Part shown: piece by piece, positions 26,342 to 28,584 of the stretch
How the letters are laid out: each line of letters starts with the position of its first letter
How positions within the stretch are numbered: position 1 is the first letter of the stretch
From: a virus
Lineage: Duplodnaviria > Heunggongvirae > Uroviricota > Caudoviricetes
Length of the DNA: 29,656 nt
Strand: one strand, 5' to 3'
IMG/VR virus record: IMGVR_UViG_2718218453_000002
Notes under the pieces: generated by a model
What the model saw: the letters and a program-made list of their open reading frames with translations, nothing else
What the model was told of the DNA's origin: nothing
Databases searched by the model: none
Program-made: the position numbers and the translations under genes

Positions 26342-26851
26342 TCAAATCAGACCAAACGATGCGCCAATACCGCTCATGGTATCGACCACGCTCGACATAG
26401 CTGGATTAGTCTGCAGACGTGCATGCAGCGCCAGAGCCGACAATGACAACATGCGAATGCCGGAGTTAACGCTTTCAATCATGTTGTGCTTACGGGCAAT
26501 GGTCAGACGTTCATCAGATACCGCGCCGCTCGCCAGTTCGCCGAGTTCACGCATTGCGCGCATGACATAAGACTGCAATTTGTCTTTAGCCAACTCATTA
26601 ACCGGCACGCATGGTAGGCAGTGAATCTGCGCTAAAAAACCATCAATGAGGGTTGAGTCTTCGGTCAGGTCAGTCAGCAGCCACAATTCAGGCGGCGTGA
26701 ACTGGTGAGGCTGTTCCGGGTTGAGCTTGTTACGTAACGTTTGAACGTTCATACCTGCACGCTCGGCCAGCTTCGCCATGTTGTGACGCTGTGCGAAAAT
26801 GCGGCATGCTTCGTCATAGTGGGGATGTTTGGAAACCTGAAAATCAAACAT
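26342..26851 (-). CDS. cII: CII-like regulatory protein (phage 186 CII family)
   Basis: From the internal ATG at 26851 (MFDFQVSKHPHYDEA.., GAGGGA Shine-Dalgarno) the protein is 169 aa, the length of 186 CII, and matches what I recall of its sequence; the track start at 26881 is TTG. Confidence 0.75.
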   Translation of the reverse strand: MFDFQVSKHPHYDEACRIFAQRHNMAKLAERAGMNVQTLRNKLNPEQPHQFTPPELWLLTDLTEDSTLIDGFLAQIHCLPCVPVNELAKDKLQSYVMRAMRELGELASGAVSDERLTIARKHNMIESVNSGIRMLSLSALALHARLQTNPAMSSVVDTMSGIGASFGLI

Positions 26852-26883
26852 GGTTAAATTCCCTCTAACTTGCATAATCAAAT

Positions 26884-27255
26884 TCAGTTAAGAGCGGTGC
26901 GCTGGTCGATGTAGCGACAATCAATCGCTTGTTGAGTCAGCTTATCGCGCCATGCTTTTACGTTTACGAGGGTTCGGCTTCGTTTAGCAGCTTCCTCTTT
27001 GTTGGAAAAGTCTTTGGTCGGAGCTTTGAGAAGGACTCCCTCATCGAGCCATTGCCAGACCAGACGCTCGCTAACACCGCGAGTAGCGGCGAAGTCTTTC
27101 ACAGTCATCGTGTCTGACATAGCGGAGCGAATCATTGTCTGTAGAGCTGGCAGCATGGCGGTAACGATGGCATCAAACTGTGTTGGATCTAGCAGCACAG
27201 TTTGATTTTGTGAGTTTTGCGAATCATTCGTCGAGATTGATTTTGCATCTGACAT
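26884..27255 (-). CDS. Apl/Cox-like excisionase and transcriptional regulator (HTH), with N-terminal extension
   Basis: First gene of the leftward early operon, in the position of 186 apl / P2 cox; HTH-like segment TVKDFAATRGVSERLVWQWLDEGVL; ATG at 27255 with AGGAG upstream. At 123 aa it is longer than 186 Apl (87 aa). Confidence 0.55.
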   Translation of the reverse strand: MSDAKSISTNDSQNSQNQTVLLDPTQFDAIVTAMLPALQTMIRSAMSDTMTVKDFAATRGVSERLVWQWLDEGVLLKAPTKDFSNKEEAAKRSRTLVNVKAWRDKLTQQAIDCRYIDQRTALN

Positions 27256-27376
27256 ATCGCATTATCTCCTGTTGTTTGAAATGTAGTGCAGTGGTGTGCA
27301 TCTTGGTCGATGAATGCCACTATAGATCGTAAAAAGTTTTCTGTAAACACCCATAAAATTATCTGTAGGGGGTTTT
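27256..27376. promoter_or_regulatory. Lysis-lysogeny switch region (promoters and operators not resolved)
   Basis: 121-bp region between the divergent apl-like and cI genes; in 186 and P2 the lytic and lysogenic promoters face each other here. Candidate TATAGA and TTGAAA elements and short repeats (TCTGTA twice) are visible but not assignable. Confidence 0.4.
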
Positions 27377-28237
27377 ATGAGTTCTGAGCTTGATGTTCAG
27401 TGGCGTGTTAGTGCAACGAACGGCGTATTGGAACGCTTAATGTCAGCCTATGGGGTCAAGATGCAAAAGGATTTGGCTGACCTGCTAGGTATCGCTAAAC
27501 ACAGCGTTAGCGGCTGGGTTCAGCGTGATGCAATACCTGGCAATGTCATAGTTAGGTGTTGTCTTGACACGGGAGCTGATATCAATTGGCTTGTAAATGG
27601 AGAGCTTGCAAATGCAAATCACGAGCGAGCCAGTTGCAAGTTAAAAGGTAAAGAGCTTTATGACGAGATTATGACGAATGGTGGTAAAACCGTTTTGCGT
27701 AGGATTCTTGATGCGTATGGCTTTACCATGCAAAAGGAGCTCGGTGATTTGCTCGGCATTTCCTCTGGCACAATTAGCACATGGGTAAGGCGAGATTTTT
27801 TCCCTGGTGATGTTGTTGTTACATGCGCTCTTGATACCGATACGTCACTGGAATGGTTAGCAACAGGCAAGGGGCAAATGCGAGCTAACAGGGAAGATGT
27901 CACATCTGGTTTTTCTATTAAAAAATCTCGTCTTGAATCTGGTGAGCTTAAGGATGCAGGAACGTGGCATCCTGACCCCTCAATGATTCCTTCTAACTCA
28001 GGGGAATTGATTTTTGTTGACGGTGTAGCTGCCTCTTGGCTTGTCGACTGTTCTGCTTCGAATATAAGTAATGGTCGCTGGTTAATTGATATCGACGGCG
28101 CTCTTGATGTTTTTGATGTAATTCGTTTACCTGGTGGAAAAGTCAGGTTGTCAAATAAGTCTGCTGAGTTTGAATGCAACATTACCGACATTACGCCTGC
28201 CGGGGTTGTAGTTTTCACATTGGAAAAACACGTATAA
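27377..28237 (+). CDS. cI: CI-type immunity repressor with tandemly duplicated N-terminal DNA-binding domain
   Basis: 286-aa ORF upstream of int and divergent from apl/cII. Residues about 14-75 and 98-160 are clearly homologous and each resembles the 186 CI N-terminal HTH domain; the C-terminal about 110 aa resemble a CI oligomerisation domain. AGGGGG Shine-Dalgarno. Confidence 0.75.
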   Translation: MSSELDVQWRVSATNGVLERLMSAYGVKMQKDLADLLGIAKHSVSGWVQRDAIPGNVIVRCCLDTGADINWLVNGELANANHERASCKLKGKELYDEIMTNGGKTVLRRILDAYGFTMQKELGDLLGISSGTISTWVRRDFFPGDVVVTCALDTDTSLEWLATGKGQMRANREDVTSGFSIKKSRLESGELKDAGTWHPDPSMIPSNSGELIFVDGVAASWLVDCSASNISNGRWLIDIDGALDVFDVIRLPGGKVRLSNKSAEFECNITDITPAGVVVFTLEKHV

Positions 28238-28245
28238 GGGAAATT

Positions 28246-28584
28246 ATGAAACGTAAACTCTTTTTAGCTATGCTTCTTACCTTTTCTTTTGGCTCCTTAG
28301 CCGCTGAAAAAACACAGGATTTAGATGGCGCTAAGTTTGGTGAGGATTGGCCGTTAACTTTTGAAAAAGCTACGGTGTCTTGCGTTAACGGTAAGTATGC
28401 CTTTGTATACGACAAAGCAACTGATGACCGATACCCATTAAATGGTTTTGCTATTGATGGAGTAAAGTCTGGAAAGCTTGAGGGGAGCAATATTGATGCT
28501 GTTTGGAAAGACAGTCCAGAGTATGCAGGTGTAAAAATTCCTTTGGATCCTGTAATGGATGCCGCAACAGCACTTTGCGAATAA
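28246..28584 (+). CDS. Secreted/periplasmic protein of unknown function (moron between cI and int)
   Basis: 112-aa ORF from ATG at 28246 (AAGGGAAA Shine-Dalgarno) with signal peptide MKRKLFLAMLLTFSFGSLA-AEK and two cysteines in the mature part; no equivalent gene lies between C/cI and int in P2. Confidence 0.6.
   Translation: MKRKLFLAMLLTFSFGSLAAEKTQDLDGAKFGEDWPLTFEKATVSCVNGKYAFVYDKATDDRYPLNGFAIDGVKSGKLEGSNIDAVWKDSPEYAGVKIPLDPVMDAATALCE

Follow-up and report, generated by a model that had tools for sequence, protein, structure and literature searches.

Among the known systems closest to the repressor studied here is the CI protein of phage 186. Phage 186 has three operators at its lytic promoter pR, two helical turns apart, and distal sites, FL and FR, about 300 bp away; its pB sites are labelled 'A-type', and the single helix-turn-helix (HTH) domain of 186 CI binds two distinct recognition sequences (PMC3675496). 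As annotated, the FL, FR, and pB sites of 186 form one sequence class, ATTCAC-N5-GTGAAT, distinct from the pR sites. We have analyzed the immunity repressor gene, cI, in a 29,656-nucleotide stretch of viral DNA (IMG/VR record IMGVR_UViG_2718218453_000002), called the window below, which is nearly a complete PSP3-type P2/186-like prophage. The gene (27377–28237 on the plus strand, including the stop codon; ATG start) was identified from the list of open reading frames (ORFs), Pfam, PHROGs, and identity to PSP3 CI, and it encodes 286 residues with two HTH domains, HTH1 and HTH2. We think it fairly probable, from comparison of sequences, that the two domains divide the labor. HTH1 and the pR operators would set immunity, HTH2 and the dyads at FL, FR, and pB would be held constant, and one operator would have been swallowed into the coding region.

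The two-HTH architecture itself can be retrieved from domain databases, as two PF07022 matches. The 286-residue CI of PSP3 (NP_958086) is 98.3% identical to the window CI and that of vB_EcoM-613R3 is 100% identical, and the cI region is present in 123 of 5,426 complete E. coli genomes. PSP3 CI and the other Eganvirus CIs (SEN1, SW9, Midge) are of the same family and architecture, with no substantive difference. The CIs of PsP3 and PhiECO3 have been noted as longer, which was ascribed to a longer C-terminal domain (CTD) (Nilsson and Haggard-Ljungquist 2011, PMC3448106). In the literature searched, we found neither the second HTH of PSP3-type CIs nor its sites described, and what we found on tandem or two-HTH phage repressors was unrelated, for example Wolbachia Wmk and a monomeric mycobacteriophage repressor with two domains. 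The mycobacteriophage protein (PMC9283540) resembles the window CI as an immunity repressor that contacts DNA through two domains of one chain. However, its folds are unrelated to those of the window CI (an HTH and a second domain that is not an HTH), and it binds one asymmetric site as a monomer, with no oligomerization wheel.

Domain architecture and distribution of the repressor

Pfam assigns two stretches of the chain to PF07022 (Phage_CI_repr; whole-protein E-value 1.3e-52) and residues 180–274 to PF16452 (Phage_CI_C; 1.3e-20), and the protein matches phrog_4, transcriptional repressor (2e-59). From the domain matches and the helices of an AlphaFold2 model, HTH1, the variable domain, occupies residues 17–76 (27425–27604), with its recognition helix at about 41–50 (AKHSVSGWVQ). 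Linker 1, residues 77–104 (27605–27688), was delimited by aligning its DNA to single-HTH relatives and is partly disordered, with low values of the predicted local distance difference test (pLDDT) at residues 79–87. It is followed by the nearly invariant HTH2, residues 105–165 (27689–27871; recognition helix at about 130–138, SGTISTWVR), and by a 186-type C-terminal oligomerization domain, recognized from PF16452 and Foldseek, that comprises the Pfam stretch and the C-terminal tail (27914–28234). All of these lie on the plus strand. In BLASTP, the N-terminal and middle segments share 37 of 74 residues (50%; 9e-25). HTH1 and HTH2 are identical at 31 of 60 residues (52%) and 100 of 180 nucleotides, and at only 21 of 60 third codon positions. 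The synonymous sites are thus saturated, and the repeat is old. These results bear out the initial annotation, which had described an immunity repressor of a 186-like switch carrying two homologous 186-type HTH segments, both now placed in PF07022, and had considered the duplication old. It was also correct in giving 186 CI one HTH and 192 residues.

The alignment of 186 CI (PDB 2fjr) spans only residues 105–279 of the window CI, HTH2 and the CTD, with about 30% identity. HTH2 is the positional homologue of the single HTH of 186 CI and, since nothing in 186 CI aligns upstream of it, the N-terminal domain, HTH1, is the addition; HTH2 and the CTD together thus match an entire ordinary 186-type repressor. 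The AlphaFold2 model (mean pLDDT 76; predicted template modelling score, pTM, 0.45) has three folded domains, with linkers of low confidence between them at residues 79–87 and 171–177. The CTD, with pLDDT of about 85–93, matches 2fkd in Foldseek with a target-normalised TM-score of 0.88 and a root mean square deviation of 1.5 Å over 106 columns. The structural search returned only 186 CI and the CTDs of LexA and lambda, and no solved tandem-HTH analogue; the LexA and lambda matches are weak fold resemblances, with E-values of 1e-5 or worse. Pfam gave no match in CI to Peptidase_S24 (PF00717), the C-terminal domain with a Ser-Lys dyad that marks lambda/LexA-type repressors. This agrees with the 186-type family, which is not stimulated to self-cleavage by RecA.

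By its HTH, its CTD, its gene context, and the absence of an S24 match, the window CI belongs to the 186-type CI repressor family, from which it departs in one feature, two HTH domains per chain rather than one. As with 186 CI (PDB 2FJR, 2FKD), a PF07022 HTH and a PF16452 CTD occur without an S24 protease domain, in the company of convergent pR and pL, apl, cII, fil, int, and a LexA-controlled Tum-type induction module. The sites predicted for the PSP3 type would also be placed as in 186, with candidate operators at pR and candidate distal sites in cI (FL), between apl and cII (FR), and at the promoter of the late activator (pB). Their sequences, however, are unrelated to ATTCAC-N5-GTGAAT, and the intragenic site lies between the two HTHs, whereas that of 186 lies after the N-terminal domain. 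Furthermore, 186 CI uses one HTH for two classes of site, while the window CI has two HTHs that are evolving very differently.

One genome per species was scanned for the locus, which gave 80 loci, 73 of them with two HTHs. These come from Enterobacterales, including Kosakonia, Serratia, Pectobacterium, Dickeya, Brenneria, Rahnella, Erwinia, Lonsdalea, and Buttiauxella. Among the best 120 homologues in the database, which come from Klebsiella, Enterobacter, Citrobacter, Salmonella, Escherichia, Pantoea, Cronobacter, and others, all but a few truncated entries have the two-HTH architecture at 278–290 residues. Within immunity types, the ratio of nonsynonymous to synonymous substitution (dN/dS) is 0.03 for HTH1 and 0.02 for HTH2, compared with 0.11 for the CTD and 0.22–0.24 for the linkers. 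Thus, both HTH domains are under strong purifying selection and functional, as had been presumed. Could the chain nevertheless be a frameshift fusion of two genes, a caveat of the initial annotation, or could one HTH be a decaying relic? We found no point in support of either, and their probability is practically negligible. The same ORF recurs in at least 73 loci from different species and in ten phage and 123 E. coli genomes, and dN/dS is low in both domains; these data refute the two readings.

HTH1, the pR operators, and the exchangeable cassette

The two HTH domains are conserved to very different degrees. In an alignment of 25 family members, the mean pairwise identity is 0.61 for HTH1, 0.87 for HTH2, and 0.63 for the CTD. 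The recognition helix of HTH2, SGTISTWVRR, is almost invariant, and that of HTH1 comes in discrete types, with KHSVSGWVQRD in the window and SNSVSTWVQRN, ANNVSSWLARN, ANNISSWIQRD, PNNISSWQQRG, and more elsewhere. At the DNA level, compared with Midge, SW9, or a third locus (L009), the window shows 87–100% identity up to about 27315, 20–65% over 27330–27650, which covers the pR operators, the N-terminal tail, HTH1, and linker 1, and 75–97% after 27650, through HTH2 and the CTD. This dip in identity between conserved flanks shows that the operators and HTH1 form one exchangeable cassette. Its left boundary is a near-invariant segment of the switch, 27199–27315, defined by alignment, which contains the N-terminus of apl, a putative pL, and the inter-promoter region, and which is 95–100% identical to Midge and SW9. 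The initial annotation, which reported neither the unequal conservation nor the intragenic operator, had suggested that the extra domain affects immunity specificity; this holds in spirit, since HTH1 and the pR operators vary as one cassette. PSP3 (L001) is itself a mosaic, with cI and operators as in the window and an apl-like gene of the SW9 (L003) type; the recombination junction is at the conserved GGTCGATGA, just left of the pR −10.

A pR-like lytic promoter lies on the minus strand at 27319–27347, with −35 TTTACA (27347–27342), a 17-bp spacer, and −10 TATAGT (27324–27319), and scores 10/12 in a promoter scan. It reads away from cI, in the face-to-face arrangement of the 186 map, and the same frame is found in most two-HTH loci. 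A repeat search found two operator-like repeats at pR, TAAAAAGTTTTCTGTAAAC (27330–27348) and CATAAAATTATCTGTAGGG (27352–27370), 22 bp apart. These repeats are kept in loci with the same HTH1 helix (PSP3, L007, L008), and other repeats or dyads are found with other HTH1 types. We compared 64 loci anchored on the pR −35. Inside the conserved promoter frame, the repeats and dyads differ by HTH1 type even when the HTH2 helix is identical. The Kosakonia type has ATCGCAAATGCGAT with a second copy 21 bp away, and elsewhere we found ATCACAAATGTGCT (L074), ATCGAAAATGAGT twice (Midge), ATACACAAATGTAT (L045), and CCCGCATTTTGCGGG (L077). Operator distance follows HTH1 distance with a Mantel r of 0.77. The partial correlation of operator with HTH1, given HTH2, is 0.66, and the reverse partial is 0.28. 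A one-residue S/G change in helix 3 is accompanied by changed operator arms. From these comparisons, we propose HTH1 as the reader of immunity specificity.

Two other candidates near pR were rejected. The motif ATTGTCTGTAG at 27134–27144 had looked like an FR-like copy of the pR repeat, but it is a coincidence of coding sequence, because PSP3, of the same HTH1 type, reads ATGTTTTGCATGG there and Midge, of another type, keeps the motif. AGATCG next to the −10 is not a universal HTH2 half-site in pR, as it is absent from L077/78, L045, and L043, which have the same HTH2 helix; it may relate instead to a GATC (Dam methylation) site. This site, at 27325–27328 directly upstream of the pR −10, is kept in most immunity types (most of L007–L080), even where the rest of the promoter spacer differs, and may make pR activity sensitive to methylation.

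Do both HTHs of one chain act at the same operator? In the eukaryotic POU domain and in AraC/MarA, two HTH-containing modules on a flexible linker act as a monomer at neighboring subsites of a single composite site, and the window CI resembles them in being one chain with two HTH units able to read different DNA. The initial annotation had raised such a composite operator. HTH1 and HTH2 of one chain would then reach, through the flexible 28-residue linker, adjacent subsites of every operator. The operators of the window and Midge types are indeed asymmetric direct repeats 21–22 bp apart, and the KSNVASW type has ATCGC and GCGAT-like arms 26–27 bp apart around the −35, with AT-rich inner arms. 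In addition, the Serratia type has a type-specific dyad adjoining a dyad of the conserved class at pR, and the small partial correlation of operator with HTH2 remains. However, no invariant half-site is common to all pR regions, and many pR sites (Kosakonia, L045, L074, L077/78) are symmetric, with both arms changing while the HTH2 helix is unchanged. The conserved sites are also symmetric dyads, and they lie far from pR. Because the arms change together, and because the two classes of site sit at different loci, the comparative data do not favor a composite operator, and we regard it as unlikely. Unlike the POU and AraC cases, the window CI is better accounted for by two separate classes of symmetric site, each of which would be read by a pair of like domains within an oligomer.

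The conserved dyad and its probable reader

A conserved class of dyad, YTTGCA-AA-TGCAAR, occurs at three places: within cI, in the interval from apl to cII, and upstream of ogr/pag, the gene for the late activator. They correspond in position to FL, FR, and pB of phage 186. The intragenic dyad, CTTGCAAATGCAAA (27605–27618), was recognized by its conservation across loci and lies 228 bp after the cI start. Within ±1.8 kb in the 73 two-HTH loci, 59 of 106 strong dyad matches fall at this one position in linker 1. The dyad is kept in two reading frames and in both orientations, encoding ELANAN, EFANAK, NSHLQ, or NLNLQ. Of its alanine codons, A78 reads GCA in 40/41 and A80 in 28/33 non-redundant loci, with synonymous entropies of 0.17 and 0.61 bits, the two lowest among 82 four-fold codon columns (median 1.77). 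The constraint is therefore on the DNA. An internal promoter as its cause was rejected: in the window, no hexamer resembling a −10 is suitably spaced, and the sequence that follows differs from locus to locus. An RNA hairpin was rejected by inference, because a 6-bp stem with a 2-nt loop is not foldable, which again leads to constraint at the level of DNA.

At the FR position, the window has a candidate dyad, CTTGCATAATCAAA (26869–26882), between the stop codon of the apl-like gene and the Shine-Dalgarno sequence of cII. It is a weaker match, 10/12. Where the cII start was mapped, 54% of loci have a match of 10/12 or better at the FR position, against 2.6% of control windows, and the Kosakonia group has CTTGCAAAAGCAAA there. 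At the pB position, upstream of ogr/pag, the dyad covers a −35-like hexamer, TTGCAA. This arrangement was seen in PSP3, Midge, SW9, and an E. coli prophage nearly identical to the window; together, these represent three HTH1 types. The sequence CTTGTAAATGGAGA at 27590–27603, in the last codons of HTH1 (WLVNGE) and 15 bp upstream of the intragenic dyad, is a relative of the dyad with three mismatches. It resembles CTTGTAAATGCAAA, which overlaps the pR −35 in Serratia-type loci, and could be a second weak site or the remnant of a duplicated promoter.

Which domain reads the dyad? Three single-HTH relatives (L081, L082, L086) share the HTH2-type recognition helix SGTISTWVRRDY and carry CTTGAYTTTGCAAG or CTTGCATTTGCGAG in the pR spacer, which suggests that the dyad serves them as pR operator. 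Unlike HTH1, the dyad and the HTH2 helix do not vary. Furthermore, a TGTAAG arm (e.g. CTTACAAATGTAAG) is found in 4 of 4 loci with the HTH2 helix SGTMSAW and in 0 of 69 others. Because of this covariation, the shared invariance, and the operator of the single-HTH relatives, we infer that HTH2 reads the conserved dyad.

HTH2 might instead be mainly a module for protein interaction or a scaffold, which docks the antirepressor TumA, makes dimer contacts, or spaces HTH1 from the wheel, with the dyad read by another factor or by a relaxed HTH1. HTH2 is the most conserved part of CI, and since TumA is 98–100% identical in phages of three immunity types, it must touch a part of CI that is constant. 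The single HTH of 186, which reads two sequences, is a precedent for a relaxed HTH1. However, HTH2 keeps the full HTH signature, the dyad is the sole pR operator of the single-HTH relatives that share its helix, and the SAW-helix variants show matching changes in the dyad arms; the HTH1 helices, for their part, are too diverse for one conserved target. We therefore consider it quite improbable that HTH2 is mainly a scaffold.

The mechanism we favor is a division of labor along a chain with the order HTH1, linker, HTH2, linker, and 186-type oligomerization domain. HTH1 would read the type-specific operators that overlap pR and thereby set immunity, and HTH2 would read YTTGCA-AA-TGCAAR at FL inside cI, at FR between apl and cII, and at pB over the −35 of the late-activator promoter. 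The oligomerizing CTD would bring all these sites together by looping, as in 186, in whose repressor family dimers assemble into a 14-mer wheel that wraps and loops DNA. The intragenic dyad and linker 1 would be an ancestral pR operator and 5′ untranslated region (5′UTR), swallowed when an HTH with its promoter and operators joined upstream. Induction would occur when the LexA-controlled TumA acts on the constant part of CI.

Several observations weigh against this division of labor. Domains are assigned to sites by covariation; the operators adjoin HTH1, so their covariation is partly linkage and not function, and the SAW/TGTAAG covariation is probably a single evolutionary event. The conservation of HTH2 could stem as much from TumA or from protein–protein contacts as from DNA. 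The window-type pR sites are AT-rich direct repeats and not clean dyads, which makes the stoichiometry ambiguous, and the inter-domain geometry of the AlphaFold2 model, a monomer with a pTM of 0.45, is unreliable. In the Serratia type, the conserved-class dyad overlaps the pR −35 beside the type-specific dyad, which fits joint binding at pR. Four Lonsdalea loci (L048, L050, L053, L058), with two HTHs and the HTH2 helix PGTISTWIRRD, have no intragenic dyad where it usually lies; the −35 anchor used did not reveal a pR-like promoter in them, and their switch may be reorganized. The FR-position site of the window matches at only 10/12, and across the window the dyad pattern is not above chance (7 matches against 13.3 expected, and 13 against 14.3). 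The evidence is therefore positional and comparative across loci.

The single-HTH relatives also bear on the origin of linker 1. In them, the dyad starts 84 nt before the HTH, and the same 84-nt offset precedes HTH2 in the window and in many two-HTH loci. Their N-terminus, MQLDELEGGKAVL, aligns with ELYDEIMTNGGKTVL of the two-HTH proteins, and their 42-nt 5′UTR, with in-frame stops and a Shine-Dalgarno sequence, aligns with linker-1 codons of the latter. Because of the common offset and this in-register alignment with the operator, 5′UTR, and first codons of the single-HTH relatives, linker 1 is most simply read as an ancestral operator, 5′UTR, and N-terminal tail, which would have been translated through after an upstream HTH with its own promoter was added. 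The initial annotation had taken the two domains for a tandem duplication. They are related, but strict intragenic duplication is not established, since HTH1 and HTH2 of the PSP3 type group as each other's closest relatives in only 9% of bootstraps. It follows that accretion of an HTH from another cI is equally possible.

Tandem HTHs were surveyed further in the 150 best representatives at 50% identity, of which 106 have one HTH, 27 have two, and one has three. Other tandem PF07022 forms are the Klebsiella Felsduovirus/Elveevirus CIs (about 313 residues), a group comprising P0184, P0196, and P0198, and P0227, which carries Peptidase_S24. Both domains of the Klebsiella group cluster together and apart from all PSP3-type domains (88% bootstrap), as do the two domains of the P0184/P0196/P0198 group with each other (99.6%). 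A single ancient duplication common to all tandem-HTH CIs was rejected, with bootstrap support of at most 0.6%. Judged from these trees, tandem HTHs arose independently at least three times. The Klebsiella group differs from the PSP3 type in that its two helices are alike and HTH1 is not the more variable domain. One Klebsiella phage locus (L004) has a perfect dyad, GTCACAACAATTGTGAC, in the linker between its HTHs, centered 84 nt before HTH2, which shares the half-site TCACA with the pR repeats of the same phage; another (L005) keeps only a half-site. By its position, the Klebsiella dyad would be a replicate of the intragenic-operator arrangement in an independently derived lineage. Among individual proteins, P0227 combines two Phage_CI_repr domains with the LexA-like Peptidase_S24, P0236 has three HTH domains, and P0214 has 525 residues with 5–7 HTH_3 repeats.

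Tentatively, and with a little less than even confidence, we suggest the following history. An HTH with its promoter and operators would have been added upstream of an ancestral cI with a single HTH, whose pR operator and 5′UTR would have turned into coding linker and an intragenic distal operator. The old domain, HTH2, would have kept the FL/FR/pB network and the TumA interface, and HTH1 with the pR operators would have become a free immunity cassette. The same solution would then have been reached at least three times in 186-like repressors, and the single HTH of 186, with its dual specificity, would be another answer to the same problem.

Induction, neighboring genes, and implications for immunity

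A LexA box, CTGTATATTTATACAG (23000–23015), is an exact CTGT-N8-ACAG match upstream of tumA, an arrangement whose equivalent is annotated in 186. The tumA gene (22796–22978, minus strand), named from the annotated TumA of PSP3, encodes a putative antirepressor of 60 residues. It is followed on the same strand by a DinI-like gene of 76 residues (22562–22792; PF06183, 1.7e-17), which corresponds to the C-terminal half of 186 Tum and whose product is 70% identical to residues 71–146 of that protein. The tum gene of PSP3 is reported to be divided in two, with the antirepressor activity residing in the upstream part (PMC3121763). Ten phage records have a PSP3-type CI, and precisely these contain TumA; no similarity was found between TumA and the N-terminal half of 186 Tum. 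Its near-identity across immunity types implies that its target is a constant part of CI, and this contact is a second possible reason for the conservation of HTH2. The shared TumA predicts co-induction of hetero-immune prophages.

In the window, cI, a DUF2511 gene, and int are on one strand, and the apl/cox-like gene, cII, fil, and the rest are on the other, in the same order as in PSP3 and 186. The apl/cox-like gene (26884–27255, minus strand; 123 residues) is the first of the lytic operon and corresponds to PSP3 orf30. It matches phrog_3554 and, weakly, the Cox-like phrog_575 (8e-5); an earlier paper labelled the 123-residue Apl/Cox equivalent a singleton. The cII-like activator gene (26342–26851, minus strand; 169 residues from the MFDFQ start) matches PF06892 at 3e-46. 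We read TTGATT (27238–27243) and CATTAT (27261–27266), with a 17-bp spacer, as a putative pL, which is below the threshold of the promoter scan. About 110 bp around the apl start codon and this putative pL are near-invariant among phages whose flanking coding DNA is variable. The 27199–27315 segment also contains the direct repeats AGTTTGATTTTG and AGATTGATTTTG, 35 bp apart, and GTGCA twice, 10 bp apart, which could be binding sites of the apl/cox-like protein.

Between cI and int lies the DUF2511 gene (28246–28584; phrog_2950), which is signal-peptide-like. In two other loci (L007, L013) this slot holds unrelated DNA (identity 0–50%), so it looks like a position for variable cargo (a moron) in the lysogenic operon. 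Inside the gene, CTGTTTGGAAAGACAG (28499–28514) is an exact CTGT-N8-ACAG match, which is probably due to chance; there are 12 matches with at most one mismatch against 8.5 expected. Between the late genes and the tum module, 19426–22121 contains three ORFs without assigned function, and no Pfam match was found for any of them. One encodes 249 residues (phrog_8999), with a weak ZorB/MotB-like PADLOC match (3e-4), another 275 residues (phrog_13337), and the third, on the opposite strand, 143 residues. By analogy with other P2-like phages, this may be an island of accessory or defense cargo.

Few alternatives to lambda are well quantified, and the 186 switch is one of them; how one HTH serves two classes of operator on a 14-mer wheel is an open question there, made directly testable by a natural relative that appears to split the two tasks between two domains. 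For annotation, what had been read in PSP3 CI as a longer C-terminal domain is a second HTH. The locus would also be a clear example of an operator that is embedded in a coding sequence and constrains it. The division of labor would explain the shuffling of immunity types as exchange of a small cassette, the operators and HTH1, with the rest of the network fixed. Hetero-immune prophages, which are common in E. coli, Klebsiella, Salmonella, and Enterobacter, would then be expected to regulate one another in part and to be induced together. If the proposed history is correct, immunity could diversify without re-evolving sites scattered around the genome, and PSP3-type phages of different immunity should still repress the late activator gene of one another and respond together to a single TumA.

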